Origin: Alphaproteobacteria bacterium
GTDB taxonomy: Bacteria > Pseudomonadota > Alphaproteobacteria > Bin95
DNA: 64,000 bases
NCBI GenBank assembly: GCA_964291285.2
Contig: OZ219786.1
Span: forward strand, 704,001-768,000
Reading direction: 5' to 3'
Under the pieces are notes generated by a model. The model had not been told where the DNA came from, made no database searches, and saw nothing but the letters and a program-made list of their open reading frames with translations. The translations under genes were made by a program, and so were the position numbers. This document shows positions 38,901-47,571 of the stretch, in pieces; position 1 is the first letter of the stretch, and every line of letters starts with the position of its first letter.

Positions 38901-39152
38901 GTCGCGGGGATAGCAGAGCAGCGAGGCGCCGCCCGCGAGGTCGAGCCGCGCGCCGGTCAGCAGGCGGATGCCGGCCCGCTTCGCCGCCATATGGGCGCGA
39001 ACCGCGCCGGCGAGCGTGTTGCGGTCGGCGATGCCGATGGCCGCAAGCCCGAGCCGCGCGGCCTCTTCCACCAGTTCCTCCGCATGGGAGGCGCCGCGCA
39101 GGAAGCTGAAATTGCTGACCGCCTGCAATTCCGCGTAAGGGACGCCGCTCAT
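35943..39152 (-). CDS. dnaE2: Error-prone DNA polymerase III alpha DnaE2 (ImuC)
   Basis: YAELQAVSNFSFLRGASH, GRGSAANS, PPDIDVDFE, GFPESHAASF, C-terminal SRDFR. Confidence 0.96.
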   Translation of the reverse strand: MSGVPYAELQAVSNFSFLRGASHAEELVEEAARLGLAAIGIADRNTLAGAVRAHMAAKRAGIRLLTGARLDLAGGASLLCYPRDRAAYGRLCRLLTLGQRRAAKGGCVLHREDLLAHAEGQVLMALPPEPWREGFETELAGLRRAHDGPLYLAARMLYRGGDRARLSRLAALAERAGAPLLATNDVHYHRPGRRPLQDVLTAVREHVTVAEAGWRLAANAERHLKDGAEIARLFRGHEEAVARSLEAASLCTFSLDELAYEYPDEPVPAGSTPQRHLEALAWKGAAWRYPDGVPEKVAAALRHELGLIGELDYAPYFLTVHDIVRYADGEGILCQGRGSAANSAVCYCLGITAVDPARIDLLFERFVSRERREPPDIDVDFEHERREEVIQYIYGRYGRERAGIAATVISYRARSAVRDVGKAMGLSEDTAAALAAAVRDMHREGVPEERLREAGLDPADPLLRRTVALATELQGFPRHLSQHVGGFVLTRGPLDETVPIGNAAMEERTFIEWDKDDLEALGLMKVDVLGLGMLTCIRKAFELLAAHKGLTLTLATVPAEDGQVWDMICRADTIGVFQIESRAQMNMLPRLKPRSFYDLVIEVAIVRPGPIQGDMVHPYLRRRDGLEEVVYPAPAPEHGPPDELRKVLEKTLGVPLFQEQAMRVAMEAARFTPDEANALRHAMATFRKRGTLGLLRDRMVGRMTARGYDPELAARCFRQIEGFGDYGFPESHAASFALLAYVSSWLKCHHPEVFACALLNAQPMGFYAPAQIVGDARGHGVEVRPVDVHASGRDNSLERRADGGHALRLGLRQVTGLGEEDAKRILKARNGLWPDIAAMQRGTGLGAAAIETLAAADAFGSMGLDRREALWQAGALAKSAPLPLFEATGGSAEGPEPPAALPAMTSGEQVIEDYRALRLSLRAHPLSFLRARLVKRGALAAEAIARSRDGERAAAAGLVLVRQRPGSASGVIFMTLEDETGVVNIVVWPRVLECFRKAVLGARLAMVRGRVQRTADIVHLVADRLEDLTGWLDLLTPDEAGGAPSPGPVAFPSRHPRNLRTIPRSRDFR

Positions 39153-40729
39153 CCGTAGAGCCCGTGGATGTACCAGCGGGGCGGACCCTTGCTGCCGGCG
39201 TCCCTGTAGAGCCCGGCGCGGTAGAGCCAGTAGCGCCGGCCTTCCACATCCTCGACGCGGTAATAATCGCGCGGGTCGTCGTCGTGGCCGCCGGCCCACC
39301 ATTCCGGCTCGATGCGCTCGGGGCCCTCGGCGCGGGCAATGCGGCGGCGCAGCCGGCGCCAGGCGAACAGCGCCGGCGGGCCGTCCGGCAGCCCGGCGAC
39401 GACCTCCACCGGCTCGGGCCGGTCGAACAGGCGGAAGGGGCGTTGCCCCACGCCCGGCCGCACGGGCCAGGCCACGCCTTCCCGGCCGGGCGCCATCCGC
39501 CGTTCGGCGCGTTCCGGCAGGTGGCTTGCGACCGGCTTGAGGCGGGAGACGGACCCTTCGCCGAGACGGGCCTGCAGGCGGTCGATCAGCGGACCGAGCC
39601 CGCCGCTGCCGCGACCGCCCTCCGTCAGCCGGAATTGCTCATGCGCGAGCGGCTCGGCGCGGACGGCGTGGAGCGCCATCGCGTCGATCCCGAACCCGGG
39701 GTCCACGGTCTCGATCTTGCCCTCGAAAAGGCGCCGCAAATGCGCGCTGTCGCGGGTGGCGCGCGCGGTCGAGACGCCGCGCCGCGCCGTGCCGCCGTCC
39801 ACCCGGCAGAACAGCAGCGCGAGTTCCCGCGCGCCGAGCCCGTCCCGTTCCAGCGAAGCGCAAAGCTCTTCCATCAGCCGGGCGACCGCCGCCTCCAGCC
39901 CGGCAAGGTCGATCAGGGGTTCCGGGAAGGCCAGGCGTGCGAGGCAGGCAGGCGGCAGCGGCAGGGACGCCGCCGGGTCGGGGCGGCGGCCGAGCGCGCG
40001 GTCGAGGCGTTCCAGAACGGCCTCGCTCCGCTCCCGGCCCTGGCCTGCCCCCGCGCACTGGCGGGGGAAGCGGCGCGCAAGCGCCGCGCGGGGCAGGGCG
40101 TCCACCGCGCCGATGGTCACCAGGCCGAGGCGGCGCAGCAGGCGGGCGTCCTCGGATACGATCCGCAGCGCCTCGACCGGCAGGGGTGCGAGTGCGGCAG
40201 GAGCACCTCCGGGCGCGGCGATGCGGCGGCCTTCCCCGCCGAAGCGGGCGAGCGCCCAGGCGGCGCCCGGCGTATCGGCAAGGCCGGTCCGCGCCCCGAA
40301 GCCAAGGCCCGCAAGGCGCGCCTCCACTTCCGCCGCCATCGCCGCCTCGCCGCCGAAGAGATGGTCGGCGCCGGCGATGTCGAGCAGCAGGCCGTCCCCG
40401 CCATCGACCGCGCAGCAGGGCGTGAAGCGGTTGCACCAGAGCGCGAGGCGTTCAAGCCCGCGCCGGTCCTCCGCCGGCCGGGCTTCGGCTGCGGCGAGGC
40501 GGGGCAGGAGCGCGCGGGCGTCGGCAAGCCGCATGCCGGGTACGAGCCCCTCGGCTTCCGCCTGCCGGTTGACCGCCGCCAGCACCGCGCCATGGCGGCC
40601 GGGCGCGGTGAGCGCGAACGGCACCGGCTCAGCCGGCGGCGCGCGCGAGGACAGGGCGGCGGGCCGCCGTGCGCGGCGCAGCCGGTCGATCGGCCAGCGC
40701 GGCAGCCACACCGAAATCACCCGTCTCAC
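39149..40729 (-). CDS. imuB: Y-family polymerase-like ImuB
   Basis: GMRLADARAL, LLLDIAG, GPERIEPEWW, RDYYRVED, WYIHGLYG; ATGA overlap with dnaE2. Confidence 0.92.
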   Translation of the reverse strand: MRRVISVWLPRWPIDRLRRARRPAALSSRAPPAEPVPFALTAPGRHGAVLAAVNRQAEAEGLVPGMRLADARALLPRLAAAEARPAEDRRGLERLALWCNRFTPCCAVDGGDGLLLDIAGADHLFGGEAAMAAEVEARLAGLGFGARTGLADTPGAAWALARFGGEGRRIAAPGGAPAALAPLPVEALRIVSEDARLLRRLGLVTIGAVDALPRAALARRFPRQCAGAGQGRERSEAVLERLDRALGRRPDPAASLPLPPACLARLAFPEPLIDLAGLEAAVARLMEELCASLERDGLGARELALLFCRVDGGTARRGVSTARATRDSAHLRRLFEGKIETVDPGFGIDAMALHAVRAEPLAHEQFRLTEGGRGSGGLGPLIDRLQARLGEGSVSRLKPVASHLPERAERRMAPGREGVAWPVRPGVGQRPFRLFDRPEPVEVVAGLPDGPPALFAWRRLRRRIARAEGPERIEPEWWAGGHDDDPRDYYRVEDVEGRRYWLYRAGLYRDAGSKGPPRWYIHGLYG

Positions 40730-41444
40730 GGTTCCACTCCACAGTGCAGGTCACGGGCCGTCCGCCCCGGCAGCGCAGCAGGTCGAGGCGCCAGCGCGGC
40801 AGGCCGGGCGCGGCGGCGTCGAACGGGTCGCCCCGATCCGGGGGCAGCGACGCGACCCGCCAGCGCGAGAAGGCGGCGCTCGCCGGCCCGAGGCCGTCCC
40901 GGCGCAGCAGCAGGACGGGGGTCAGGCTCTCGCGGGCGGCGAGCGCAAGCCGGCGGCTCAGGGTGAAATCGAGGCTTTCGACCTCGCCCAGCACCGCCGC
41001 CAGGGCGGCGCTGCGCAATCCCTCCTCCATCGCCCAGGCGACATCCCGGTCGCGGCGGGCGGAGAGCAGCAGCAGGTCCGCCGGTTCGAGGCCAAGGTCC
41101 CGCCAGCCCGGCCCGTAGAGCCGGCCGAAGGGGCTCGTCCGGCTCTGGCAGACCAGCACGGCGCCCCGCCCGTCCCGGCGGTCGAGCCGGGCAAGCAGGG
41201 CAGCCAGGAAAGCGGCGGCTGCCGGCCCGTCTCCTGCCGCGCTGCCGCCCGCCTCATGCAGCCCGCCCACCGCCAGCCCATGCTCCGGCAGGGCTCCGTC
41301 CAGGGCGCCGAGGCCGAACCGCCAGACCTCCGCTGCTCCGCCTCCCGCCGGCTCCGCAACGGCCGTCCGGCGTTCCAGCAGGGCGATGCGCCGCCTCAGC
41401 GCGGCGAGCCCGGCAGGATTTCTTCGGGGAAGAGGGGCCGACAT
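40629..41444 (-). CDS. imuA: ImuA (RecA/SulA-like mutagenesis accessory protein)
   Basis: GGLHE, LYGPG, WAMEEGLR, SRRLALAA, LLRCRGG; first gene of the cassette. Confidence 0.88.
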   Translation of the reverse strand: MSAPLPRRNPAGLAALRRRIALLERRTAVAEPAGGGAAEVWRFGLGALDGALPEHGLAVGGLHEAGGSAAGDGPAAAAFLAALLARLDRRDGRGAVLVCQSRTSPFGRLYGPGWRDLGLEPADLLLLSARRDRDVAWAMEEGLRSAALAAVLGEVESLDFTLSRRLALAARESLTPVLLLRRDGLGPASAAFSRWRVASLPPDRGDPFDAAAPGLPRWRLDLLRCRGGRPVTCTVEWNRETGDFGVAAALADRPAAPRTAARRPVLARAAG

Positions 41445-41446
41445 AT

Positions 41447-41461
41447 GTTCATTATTGGTTC
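41447..41461 (-). promoter_or_regulatory. Alphaproteobacterial LexA box (GTTC-N7-GTTC)
   Basis: GTTC-ATTATTG-GTTC, 2 bp upstream of the imuA ATG. Confidence 0.9.
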
Positions 41462-41479
41462 GATTGACGGGCGAGTCAA
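41451..41479 (-). promoter_or_regulatory. Sigma70-type imuA promoter, probably leaderless
   Basis: Minus strand TTGACT-N17-AATAAT, then 6 nt to ATG; no RBS. Confidence 0.7.
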
Positions 41480-41531
41480 TAAGGGGCCGAGCTGCGGTTG
41501 GGGACCGAACGGGCCGGGACCCTCTGCGGGA

Positions 41532-41950
41532 TGTCATGAAATGTCATGTTTTGTCATGAGGCCCTCCGGAAATGTCATGTTTTGTCGTGGTCCGGGTCGA
41601 AGCCCGGGCCGTTGGCGCCGCTTCGAGGAGTCGTTCGTCGGGGCATTTGCGCCTCCTTCCATTCGATGGTTTCCGCCGCCCGCTGTTGCGGGGCGGCGAC
41701 CCTTTTTCGCGCGTAACGCGCGCGGGCCGGCGCGCGTCGGCGCCGGCGCGGTTCGCGCGCCTGATTGCCCGCGTGCGCCCGCATGCGCGAGGCAGTCGCC
41801 GGACGCACCCCTCCCGCCTGCTCCCCTGGGGGCTTTTTTCGCGCCGCCGCGACCCGAAGCGGCCTCCGGACAACCGCTTCCTCCCGCTCCACCTAATGGG
41901 CGGCGGCGCGGATTTCAACCCCTGTAATGGAATTTTTTCAGAAATTGTGA
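41532..41950 (-). repeat. Dispersed element copy C (diverged, reverse strand)
   Basis: Core at 41740-41768; AAGCGG..CCGCTT hairpin; GAAGGAGG RBS and ATGCC; TGTCATG at 41532, 41542, 41552, 41573 and variant TGTCGTG at 41583. Confidence 0.8.
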
Positions 41951-42044: not shown

Positions 42045-42575
42045 ATGACCGCTATCGACGCCATGCAGGACAGCGACTGGCCCGAGGTCCGCGCCATTTA
42101 CCGCGCGGGCCTGAAGACCGGCATCGCCGCCTTCATGAAGAACCCGCCGAGCTGGAAGGCGTGGGACAAGGGGCACCTGGCCATCGGCCGGCTGGTCGCC
42201 AGAGACGGCGGCGGCCGCGCGGTCGGCTGGGCGGCGCTGACGCCCGCCCCCGACACCTGAGGCGCTGCCGGTGTCGCTGAGGTCAGCGTCTATGTCGGCG
42301 AAAGCGCGCAAGGGTCAGGGACCGGAACCGCCTTGCTGGAGGGGCTGGTCGCGGCCTCCGAGGCGGAGGGCTACTGGACGCTGCAGGCGCAGATCATGGC
42401 GGCGAACCTGCCCAGCATCGCGCTCCACCGGAAATGCGGCTTCCGCGAGGTCGGCCGCCGGGAGCGCTACGGGCATCTGGACGGCGTCTGGCACGACGTG
42501 TTGCTGTTCGAGCGCCGCAGCGCCCGCACCGGAGGACCCGGCCTGCCGACAAGGACCTGCGACGCGGCGGGGTAG
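42045..42575 (+). CDS. GNAT N-acetyltransferase (PAT/YncA/ArsN-like) with in-frame TGA, probable selenoprotein
   Basis: ORFs 42045-42260 and 42333-42575 share a frame and are joined by one TGA (42258-42260): GWAALTPAPDT-U-GAAGVAEVSVYV...QGSGTG...SIALHRKCGFREVG; hairpin follows. Confidence 0.7.
42273..42290 (+). promoter_or_regulatory. Candidate bacterial SECIS hairpin for the GNAT UGA
   Basis: CGCTG-AGGT-CAGCG stem-loop; loop 20-23 nt after UGA. Confidence 0.55.
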
Positions 42576-42643: not shown

Positions 42644-43126
42644 ATGGGCGAGAAGCTGGGGATCGGCGCCGCGTTTCCGGCCCTTTCGCTGAACCTGTTG
42701 GACCGGGGACCGGCGGAAGTGCCCGCCGACATGCCGGGCGCCTGGAAGGTGGTGCTGTTCTACCGCGGCCACTGGTGACCCTATTGCCGCCGTCAGTTGG
42801 ACGGCTTCCAGGAATTATGGCCGGAGTTCGAGGCGCGCGGCGTCTCCATCCTCGCCGGCAGCGTGGACGATGAGGATAACGCCCGCAAATTGGCGGACGG
42901 CAAGAGCTTCCCCTTCGCCTGGGGCATGACGCGGGCGGACGGAGACCGGGTCGGCGCCTGGTGGGAAGACCGCCGCAGCATCGTCCAGCCCTCCGAGTTC
43001 ATCCTGAACGAGGCCGGCGCGATCGAGGTCTCCAGCTACAGCGACGGCCCGCTCGGCCGCATCGACGCCGCCGACGCGCTGAAGCTGATCGACCTCTACG
43101 AGTCGCGGAGAAAGGCCGGGGGCTGA
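42644..43126 (+). CDS. Peroxiredoxin-like (AhpC/TSA, redoxin) selenoprotein with UxxC motif
   Basis: MGEKL...VVLFYRGHW-TGA-PYCRRQL; TGA at 42776-42778 occupies the first Cys of CxxC; RBS GGAGAGG. Confidence 0.88.
42789..42805 (+). promoter_or_regulatory. Candidate bacterial SECIS hairpin for the Prx-like UGA
   Basis: GCCGTC-AGTTG-GACGGC; loop G 18 nt after UGA. Confidence 0.6.
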
Positions 43127-43212: not shown

Positions 43213-43737
43213 TTATCCTCGCCTTGCCTGCCTCCGCCGCCAGTATCGCGGGTCGAAGGCGACATCGTGGCCCCAGAGGCCGCGTCCTTCCCGGCGGGCT
43301 TCCAGTTCGACCTCCTTGTAGAGGTCTCCGTAAGCGGCGATGGCATGGCCGTTGCGGACGAGCCAGGCGCCGACATCCCTGCCGCCGCAGGTTACGCGGC
43401 CCAGCACGCGGCCATGCCGGTCTATGCCTTCCACGGACACCTCGACATGCCGGCCGCCGACCGTGCGGATGAGCGCACGCTTGACCCGTTTGCCGTGCTT
43501 GAACCAATAGCCGTCCCGGTGTTTCGCCCACTGGTCCAGTTCCGGGGCGTCGAGGCCGGAGAAGCGGACCCTGTGGCCGGAGACCCGGAGACTGTCGCCA
43601 TCTGTCACCCATGCCTTGCCGGCGATGACGCTGCCGGCTTCGGGTGCGGGCAGGCGCCGCTTGCGGCCTGGCTGCCGCCGGTGCCGCTGGCTGAGAAGCC
43701 GGAAAGCGGCACGGGCAAGGGCAGCGAGGAGTTTCAT
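43213..43737 (-). CDS. Thermonuclease (SNase-like) family protein
   Basis: VTDGDSL, RFSGLDAPE, DRHGRVLG, LVRNGHA, ARREGRGLW. Confidence 0.85.
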   Translation of the reverse strand: MKLLAALARAAFRLLSQRHRRQPGRKRRLPAPEAGSVIAGKAWVTDGDSLRVSGHRVRFSGLDAPELDQWAKHRDGYWFKHGKRVKRALIRTVGGRHVEVSVEGIDRHGRVLGRVTCGGRDVGAWLVRNGHAIAAYGDLYKEVELEARREGRGLWGHDVAFDPRYWRRRQARRG

Positions 43738-43867
43738 AGCCCGTTCCGCTTAGCATGTTTCCCGCCCGCCGACACCCGGCCGGGGCGGCCCGGCTTGCGT
43801 GTCCGGAGGAAGCGGCTATACCTCTCGGCAGCCCGGAACGGGCGGCCCGAAGGCGGTATCGAAGGCA

Positions 43868-44916
43868 ATGACGAAAGACAGCACGGCGGCGCTGGAGGCG
43901 GCGGCCGGGGAACGCATCCTCGTTCTCGACGGCGCAATGGGGACCATGATCCAGCAGCTCGGCCTGGAGGAGGCCGACTTCCGCGGCGCGCGCTTCGCCG
44001 GCTGGGACCGGGACCTCAAGGGCAATAACGACCTGCTGAACCTGACGCAGCCGGACGCCATTGCCGACATCCACGGCACCTTCCTGGACGCCGGCGCCGA
44101 CATTCTCGAGACCAACAGCTTCAACGCCACCCGGGTCGCGCTGGCCGATTACGGCATGGAGGCGTTCGCCCGCGAGATCAACGAGGCCGCGGCCCGGATC
44201 GCCCGCAAGGCCGCGGACGGCCGCCGGGACGGCCGGCCGCGCTGGGTGGCGGGCGCCATCGGGCCGACCAACCGCACCGCCTCGATCTCTCCCGATGTCG
44301 AGGACCCGGCGGCGCGCAATGTCGATTTCGACACGCTCCGCGCCGCCTACCGCGAGGCCGCCGAGGGCCTGATGGACGGCGGGGCGGACCTGCTTGCCGT
44401 CGAGACGGTGTTCGACACGCTGAACGCCAAGGCGGCGCTCTACGCCGTCGAGGAGGCGTTCGAGGCGCGCGGCACCCGCCTGCCGGTCCTCGTCTCCGGC
44501 ACGGTTGTGGACCTCTCCGGACGCACCTTGTCCGGCCAGACGCCGGAGGCTTTCTGGTATTCGGTGCGCCATGCCGCGCCCTTCGCCGTCGGCCTCAATT
44601 GCGCGCTCGGGGCGGAGCAGATGCGCGGCTTCCTCGCCGACATGGCGCGCGTGGCCGACACGCTGATCTCCGCCTATCCGAACGCCGGCCTGCCCAACGC
44701 CTTCGGAGGCTATGACGAGACGCCGGAGACGACCGCCCGCCATCTGGGCGCCTGGGCGCGGGACGGGCTGGTGAACCTGGTCGGCGGCTGCTGCGGCACC
44801 ACGCCCGCGCATATCGCCGCCGTCGCCGAAGCCGTGGCGGGCGTGACCCCGCGCAAGCCGCCCCGGATGGAGCGGCGCATGCGGCTCGCCGGGCTCGAAC
44901 CCTTCGTCGCGGCGGC

Positions 44917-44920
<4 letters not shown>
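43868..44920 (+). CDS. metH: Methionine synthase, homocysteine-binding module (split MetH part 1)
   Basis: [34 protein letters not shown]. Confidence 0.93.

Positions 44921-47571
<2,651 letters not shown>

Follow-up and report, generated by a model that had tools for sequence, protein, structure and literature searches.

The 64,000-nucleotide (nt) stretch of contig OZ219786.1 analysed here (the window) comes from an alphaproteobacterial genome and carries, at positions 42045-42575, a gene of the GNAT type interrupted by a single in-frame TGA. This gene, here called Sec-GNAT for the selenocysteine (Sec) that it is proposed to encode, starts with ATG 42045 and ends with TAG 42573-42575. The TGA at 42258-42260 (codon 72) is its sole in-frame interruption, and it carries no further lesion. 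In the list of open reading frames (ORFs), it appears as two fragments of the same frame, 42045-42260 (71 amino acids (aa)) and 42333-42575 (80 aa). A preliminary description of the locus had pointed to these two same-frame fragments split by one TGA, to a 176-aa read-through product with an intact QGSGTG acetyl-CoA motif, and to a CGCTG-AGGT-CAGCG hairpin with its loop 20-23 nt past the TGA. All of this was confirmed, with the hairpin found at 42275-42288 and its loop at 42280-42283. The peptide around residue 72 of the read-through product is ...PAPDT-U-GAAGVAEVSVYVGESAQ... (U, Sec). The features of the gene are as follows.

42045..42575, + strand: Sec-GNAT coding sequence, 176 codons plus TAG stop; codon 72 is TGA
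42249..42266, + strand: remodelled gate loop, residues 69-74 (P-D-T-U-G-A); positions 69, 71, 72, 73 and 74 are clade-specific
42258..42260, + strand: in-frame TGA, probably read as Sec72; TGA at the same codon in orthologues
42273..42290, + strand: hairpin resembling a selenocysteine insertion sequence (SECIS), 18-nt core; invariant bases 42274-42289
42275-42279 with 42284-42288, + strand: hairpin stem of 5 base pairs (bp); apical loop AGGU at 42280-42283
42273 with 42290, + strand: outer pair G42273-C42290 of the hairpin, followed by a U.U mismatch (42274/42289)
42279..42281, + strand: clade-invariant codon of Glu79, which aligns to the Glu of V-E-x-S-V-Y in PAT-family structures (2bl1, 9igk)
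42309..42326, + strand: acetyl-CoA motif QGSGTG, residues 89-94, between strand 77-84 and helix 93-107
42531..42560, + strand: C-terminal tail GGPGLPTRTC (residues 163-172), whose last residue is the invariant Cys172 (42558-42560)

The gene product, 176 residues long, is a GNAT acyl-CoA N-acyltransferase from a clade of its own within the PAT/ArsN1/YncA-like group. The match to Pfam Acetyltransf_1 (PF00583) has an E value of 2.5e-13 and a score of 50.7 bits (cut-off 20.7). In NCBIfam, ArsN1 family A (NF040503) comes closest with 111 bits, below the cut-off of 170, and three further clade members score 105-112 bits with the same model. Scores for PAT (NF040502, 54.6 against 300) and ArsN1 family B (NF040504, 53.9 against 210) are also below cut-off, and no NCBIfam model names the Sec-GNAT family. 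The AlphaFold model has a GNAT fold with a predicted local distance difference test score (pLDDT) of 89.4 and the element order beta1-alpha1-alpha2-beta2-4-alpha3-beta5-alpha4-beta6-7. Foldseek against the PDB returns PAT-family chains with probability 1.00, at template modelling (TM) scores of 0.80-0.85 and 25-32% identity. The best matches are Pseudomonas syringae phosphinothricin acetyltransferase (9igl), PA4866, B. ovis PAT, BAR and PpArsN1; a literature search found no paper on the 9igl protein.

Comparative evidence indicates that UGA72 is recoded, under a constraint specific to the TGA genes. The favoured reading, with a probability of roughly 0.88 on the basis of sequence comparison, is that 42045-42575 represents a genuine, conserved and previously uncatalogued selenoprotein family on a GNAT scaffold. 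In bacterial Sec insertion, a hairpin in the message recruits SelB carrying Sec-tRNA(Sec). Here, UGA72 would be decoded as Sec, and the hairpin, which starts 16 nt past the U of the UGA, would be the SECIS bound by SelB/Sec-tRNA(Sec). The recoding mechanism itself is ordinary bacterial Sec insertion.

A protein search of 41 related genomes recovered 16 orthologues at 65-99% identity. The window's genus, with 17 genomes, accounts for 14; of the other two, one belongs to a different genus in the same family and one to a different family. Each of the 16 has one in-frame TGA, always at the same aligned codon (...PDT*GA[AP]GVAEVSVY...). In a clade-alignment scan of species-representative genomes, TGA occupies the codon-72 column in 33 of 80 family loci (52-91% identity), and the remaining 47 encode Cys (35), Ala (4), Lys (4), Glu (2), Arg (1) or Pro (1) at that column. 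As nine of the 33 duplicate members of the 16-orthologue set, there are 40 non-redundant TGA genes. For an independent retrieval, the hairpin and its 5' context were searched in species-representative genomes with codon 72 left unspecified. This pattern matched 103 stretches, and a TGA lies directly upstream of the hairpin in all 80 listed loci (80 of the 103 matches). By record title, the carriers include Alphaproteobacteria (Rhodospirillaceae, Hyphomicrobiaceae, Paracoccaceae and Devosia) as well as Burkholderiales, Pseudomonadales, Granulosicoccaceae, Azotimanducaceae, SAR324 and Promineifilaceae (Chloroflexota). The TGA is therefore not unique to this genome. Nor does it align to Arg or Trp or to a merely variable column, given Cys in 35 of the 47 non-TGA homologues, although the column is not invariant.

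These distributions bear on a first alternative, in which a decaying GNAT gene has recently acquired the TGA as a lesion, or the TGA is an assembly error. Gene callers do stop at the TGA, giving 71-aa products, and the source genome has an intact Cys-type paralogue (C4:221510-221995; 53% identity, no stop, 169-aa frame), also present in most genomes of the genus, which could make the TGA copy dispensable. However, the same codon is TGA in 16/16, 33/80 and 80/80 loci of the three data sets, across Alpha-, Beta- and Gammaproteobacteria, SAR324 and Chloroflexota, and the gene contains no second lesion. Selection is also not relaxed after the TGA. By the Nei-Gojobori method, over 120 pairs among the 16 closest sequences, the ratio of nonsynonymous to synonymous substitution rates (dN/dS) is 0.166 for codons 2-71 (dN 0.064, dS 0.385) and 0.171 for codons 85-172 (dN 0.074, dS 0.432). 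The chance that the gene is a pseudogene or an assembly error is close to nil.

The host has the machinery that Sec insertion requires: the source genome encodes SelA (482 bits), SelB, SelD (277 bits against a cut-off of 125) and a tRNA-Sec with anticodon tca. The SelD match, at C2:1357981-1358862 (L023), sits in a 747-aa open frame, longer than the 311 positions of the model, which suggests a fusion with another domain. SelA is found in all 16 of the related genomes that carry a TGA-GNAT; of the 25 that do not, 14 are SelA-positive and 11 SelA-negative, so that TGA-GNAT occurs in 0/11 SelA-negative genomes. As the 41 genomes are related to each other, this co-occurrence is a matter of consistency and not a statistical test. 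Among distant carriers, SelA was found in four of five. No Sec-type formate dehydrogenase (FDH) was found in the genome, its FDH-like frames being without internal stop and below the TIGR01553 cut-off; these frames include C5:120337-123141 and C3:236111-238027. What keeps the Sec machinery in use must therefore be other selenoproteins, for example the two encoded in the window (Sec-GNAT and a peroxiredoxin-like gene, see below), and Sec-GNAT may be one of the genes that do so in this genome.

A different alternative accepts the gene as functional and takes the TGA as a true stop or as a codon decoded other than as Sec. The locus would then be a split GNAT, composed of a 71-residue peptide and a reinitiated C-terminal part, or the TGA would be passed by near-cognate read-through as Trp, Cys or Arg. 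The case for Sec is one of sequence comparison, the hairpin could in principle stimulate read-through or pausing, and SelA was not found in one of the five distant carriers. However, the terminal stops of 75 complete TGA-GNAT genes are mixed (TGA 39, TAG 24, TAA 12), and thus an ordinary stop at codon 72 would not be expected to be TGA every time, as it is in 80/80 listed loci. The use of TGA as terminal stop in 39 of these 75 genes also indicates that TGA has not been reassigned genome-wide and is still a stop. Reinitiation would have to use TTG 42333, the first in-frame common start past the TGA, which lies 24 codons on and skips GVAEVSVYV, the most conserved stretch of the protein. The residue aligned to the TGA in relatives is predominantly Cys (35/47), and TGA-GNAT is absent from the 11 SelA-negative genomes. 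Termination or non-Sec decoding is accordingly considered very unlikely.

The hairpin is constrained at the nucleotide level. From nt +17 to +32 (with the U of UGA as 1), 16 bases are identical in 40/40 non-redundant TGA genes, synonymous sites included. In the codon alignment of these genes, codons 77-81 (V-A-E-V-S) have zero codon entropy, with a single codon used at each, compared with 0.6-2.3 bits at all remaining conserved degenerate positions. The 47 non-TGA homologues serve as a control: they encode the same GVAEVS with freely variable synonymous sites, and GCTGAGGTCAGC is present in only three of them, or in none (0/47) when the preceding GTC is included. RNAalifold finds a consensus in the TGA clade of the invariant 5-bp stem with AGGU loop, followed by two weak further pairs. 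The outer G-C pair is kept in 35/40 genes, replaced by G-U in two and broken in three. In the window's own sequence, folding energies are -6.6 kcal/mol (18 nt), -8.2 kcal/mol (30 nt) and -16.2 kcal/mol (40 nt), and the 18-nt core folded alone has a z score of -2.57. The published bacterial SECIS model asks for an apical loop of 3-9 nt with a G among its first two bases, an upper stem of 4-16 bp, a spacing of 16-37 nt and a minimum free energy of at most -7.5 kcal/mol (PMC13188914). The 4-nt loop, the G at loop position 2, the 5-bp stem and the 19-nt spacing between loop and TGA fit the model as given there, and the energy is borderline. Support for the hairpin comes from its invariance at synonymous sites between genes, not from single-sequence folding or covariation, and its apparent significance is that of a comparison with other genes.

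The TGA genes form what is, from the alignments, a single distinct clade within PAT/ArsN1/YncA-like GNATs. A quick maximum-likelihood tree groups the 40 TGA genes with three metagenome proteins on one side of a branch whose SH-aLRT support is 96. Their closest sequence relatives, at 53-62% identity, are annotated as phosphinothricin acetyltransferase or YncA and form a sister family with Cys at the column in question in 35/47 members (consensus ...SPVSxR-C-VYAGVAEVSVYV...); the source genome's own paralogue at C4:221510-221995 belongs to this family. The consensus given for such relatives in the preliminary description, GWAALSPVSxRCVYAGVAEVSVYV, is the same as the computed alignment consensus, and the TGA aligns without gaps to its Cys. 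The sister family shares the identical GVAEVSVYV strand, but differs from the TGA clade in lacking the TGA, the hairpin that is invariant at synonymous sites and the Cys-containing tail.

Seven substitutions separate the 40 TGA genes from the 47 non-TGA homologues: T29A, S69P, R71T/N/H, C72U, V73G, Y74A and G116Q. Position 71 is Thr, Asn or His in 40/40 clade genes and Arg in 47/47 sister genes. Changes of TFE to AFM and VY to GA, already proposed in the preliminary description, are real, and T29A, V73G and Y74A are indeed clade-specific; residue 31, the third of the first motif, is unconserved in the clade. G92 and G94 of the acetyl-CoA motif are at least 90% conserved within the clade. At the C-terminus, Cys172 and Leu167 are present in 40/40 genes and Pro168 and Thr169 in 39/40, and the tail is found in 0/47 non-TGA homologues. 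Among the hairpin-retrieved loci, the tail with its Cys is seen in 73/80; two are cut by contig ends, four are truncated and one is without the Cys. This invariant Cys tail, which marks the clade, had been missed in the earlier reading of the locus.

No Cys form of the TGA clade was found, either among the 47 non-TGA loci or among ten proteins examined from the best 150 matches when 1.84 billion representatives were searched with a profile built from 26 clade members. Four of the ten had been picked for a match reaching profile position 164 or beyond. P0240 and P0250 were considered as Cys forms of the clade and rejected, their Cys-containing ends being unrelated. Among the ten, the tail is confined to P0123, where residue 72 is shown as W. 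This W72 almost certainly represents a TGA translated with an alternative table; P0003 is 91% identical to a SAR324 locus with TGA at that codon. Two SAR324-like clusters, that of P0003 with 333 members and that of P0123 with 322, contain both 173-aa forms and 71-aa forms ending at residue 71. The 173-aa forms have Trp72 and are mostly on contigs shorter than 2 kb, and sampled truncations are 71-79 aa long and end at the TGA. Source names in both clusters are YncA, phosphinothricin acetyltransferase or N-acetyltransferase domain protein, and none flags a selenoprotein. Sec-GNATs are thus mis-annotated in public sources, and the split between 71-aa and Trp72 forms is a recognisable annotation artefact that could serve to mine further selenoprotein candidates. 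The TGA clade appears to be Sec-only, and the failure to find a Cys form suggests that selenium is required rather than tolerated.

A number of observations weigh against a conserved Sec-GNAT family. At -7.41 kcal/mol, the RNAalifold consensus narrowly misses the published energy threshold, and single-sequence folding beyond the core is not significant (z -0.8 to -1.0 at 30-40 nt). The 63 nt after the TGA favour another structure (z -0.66) and are not used as support. Since the hairpin core is invariant, it offers no covariation, and a double change is seen in only one of eight predicted pairs. No Rfam family was matched anywhere in the window at gathering thresholds. The Cys of the sister family is replaceable (12/47 non-Cys), so a catalytic role of this Cys is not universal. 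Of the 80 loci retrieved by the hairpin, four are truncated or frame-shifted downstream of it, for which decay or assembly error is possible, and in another, on a 2.1-kb Pseudomonadales contig, the tail ends ...LPGRGNGN without Cys (exceptional loci: L130, L137, L167, L178 and L157). P0005, a SAR324-like metagenome protein on a 4459-bp contig, has Leu72 and Asn74 where its relatives have TGA (or W) and Tyr; the Leu72 could be a real loss of Sec or a sequence error. The carrier in which SelA was not found is a Granulosicoccaceae metagenome-assembled genome (MAG), which may be incomplete. The tail has a pLDDT of only 50-61 in the first structural model, rising to 80 when folded with the clade alignment. 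Finally, clustering of flanking ORFs found no neighbour common across lineages in 40 loci (about 3 kb) or in 80 loci (up to 8 kb).

The position of residue 72 in the fold gives some indication of what Sec may do. In the predicted structure, it lies in loop 68-76, between strands 59-67 and 77-84, and residues 69-74 map to Arg75-Ala76-Arg77-x-x-Tyr80 of PpArsN1 (9igk alignment; offset of +6 to 5jtf). In the published account of PpArsN1, Arg75-Ala76-Arg77 of one subunit reach into the substrate site of the partner, and the two arginines, Arg75 and Arg77, make contact with the substrate and serve as gates (PMC6465285).

In the mechanism proposed here for Sec-GNAT, acyl transfer is probably kept, as the acetyl-CoA motif and Glu79 are retained; Glu79 is presumably the general base, as in other PAT proteins. 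The acceptor site would have been rebuilt, with Sec72 in the beta3-beta4 gate loop replacing the usual Cys of the sister family, in the same loop that enters the partner subunit's substrate pocket in the PpArsN1 dimer. Loss of the cationic gate Arg implies that the substrate is probably not of the anionic phosphinate, arsinate or sulfoximine type. The location of Sec72 at the gate, together with its evolutionary pairing with the tail Cys, suggests a selenenylsulfide couple: Sec72 may work with the invariant Cys172, on a flexible Gly/Pro-rich tail, either in catalysis or in gating or protecting the active site. Taken as a whole, this acceptor-site and Sec72-Cys172 mechanism is tentative, with somewhat less than an even chance of being correct.

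A bolder version would make the GNAT scaffold a true selenoenzyme, with the Sec72/Cys172 couple doing the chemistry. The couple might reduce an oxidised amino acid of sulfur or selenium bound in the former methionine-sulfoximine/phosphinothricin pocket, or capture a thiophilic organo-metalloid amino acid for N-acetylation. The two possibilities together are rather doubtful; if true, Sec-GNAT would be the first selenoenzyme of the acyl-CoA N-acyltransferase superfamily.

Two other roles for Sec72 were weighed against the proposed couple. Sec72 might be a covalent acyl acceptor, giving a Se-acetyl enzyme in a ping-pong reaction, with the tail Cys as acceptor or as protection for the selenol. A selenol is both a better nucleophile and a better leaving group than a thiol, and retention of the acetyl-CoA motif and Glu79 is compatible with such a role. 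Sec72 also follows the equivalent of PpArsN1 Arg77, which is described as contacting the substrate amino group near the acetyl-CoA sulfur. However, the Cys of the sister family is dispensable, as seen above. In addition, characterised PAT, ArsN1 and MAT enzymes transfer acetyl directly and are not known to form a covalent intermediate. The Se-acetyl enzyme is therefore regarded as improbable.

Alternatively, Sec72 and Cys172 could be soft ligands for a thiophilic metal or metalloid substrate, for example a trivalent organoarsenical amino acid, which is then N-acetylated. ArsN1 family A is the closest NCBIfam model, Sec appears at the very place where the oxyanion-binding gate Arg has been lost, and a Sec-containing arsenite methyltransferase and arsenate reductase are among catalogued families (PMC13188914). 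Against this, the ArsN1 family A score is below cut-off, no ars genes adjoin Sec-GNAT in the window, and the flanking-ORF comparison revealed no conserved neighbour. A soft-ligand role is slightly less probable again than the Se-acetyl enzyme.

The genes around Sec-GNAT in the window are the following.

39149-41537, - strand: ImpB/MucB/SamB-type polymerase and an upstream 302-aa ORF without Pfam match
42644-43126, + strand: second selenoprotein gene, AhpC/TSA-family peroxiredoxin (Prx)-like, HW-U-PYC (AhpC/TSA match, E 1e-17)
43213-43737, - strand: staphylococcal-nuclease-domain protein
43799-47571, + strand: methionine synthase in two overlapping frames, homocysteine S-methyltransferase domain followed by pterin/B12/activation domains

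The Prx-like gene has its TGA at 42776-42778, followed by a 6-bp stem with a 5-nt loop (AGUUG) that starts 17 nt past the TGA; this UxxC family is already catalogued (PMC13188914). The preliminary description was correct in identifying the next gene as a UxxC protein, but as support for Sec-GNAT this is weak, since the Prx-like gene adjoins it in only 7/40 non-redundant loci, all among the 16 closest (81-99% identical). A neighbour shared by the window's genus and SAR324 (Lon N-terminal-domain-like by eye) was dismissed, its distances being quite different. With no conserved neighbour, gene context gives no hint of function.

Bacterial selenoproteins known so far are for the most part redox enzymes with a thioredoxin fold or a metal centre, and an acetyl-CoA-dependent acyltransferase with Sec in its substrate loop would broaden the range of chemistry that uses selenium. 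The Sec-GNAT family is not rare, with 103 hairpin matches in species-representative genomes and two clusters of 333 and 322 members. It would also be a clean model system, since the protein is small and soluble and the short SECIS does not vary among the members examined.

A 2026 review compiles 119 prokaryotic selenoprotein families in its Table 1, and no GNAT or acetyltransferase is among them, although its supplementary listings may differ (PMC13188914). In term searches, the main texts of deep-Sep (PMC12013277) and BSepDB (PMC13326102) gave no acetyltransferase selenoprotein, with an unnamed entry in supplementary listings being possible. The same is true of the main texts of the Global Ocean Sampling (GOS) study, a 2022 review, and studies of the Olavius symbiont and of marine Deltaproteobacteria (PMC2398784, PMC9312934, PMC1976440 and PMC8318568). 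A wider literature search found nothing relevant linking selenoproteins to phosphinothricin or N-acetyltransferases.

Sec-GNAT resembles bacterial selenoproteins known to have exchanged Cys for Sec, such as the Prx-like UxxC family and arsenite methyltransferase, in having an in-frame UGA at the position of the homologues' Cys (PMC13188914). As described there, it further resembles them in its downstream stem-loop with a G in the apical loop at 16-37 nt, in its presumed dependence on selABCD and in a putative Cys partner. It differs from them in that no Cys-form member of the clade was found, and its fold is not thioredoxin-like. There is also no UxxC or CxxU motif, the putative partner Cys being 100 residues away on the C-terminal tail. 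Compared with the COG1247-type GNATs of the PAT/ArsN1/MAT group (YncA, PA4866; 9igl, 2j8m, 5dwn, 5t7e and 5wph), Sec-GNAT is alike in fold, length, the Q-x-x-G-x-G acetyl-CoA motif and the A/V-E-x-S-V-Y strand with its conserved Glu. However, it scores below all three equivalog cut-offs and is without the gate arginines of PAT and ArsN1: Arg75 and Arg77 of PpArsN1 are replaced by Pro69 and Thr71, Tyr80 by Ala74 and Gly122 by Gln116. What Sec-GNAT has in addition to that group is the predicted Sec72 and the extra C-terminal G-G-x-x-L-P-T-x-x-C tail.

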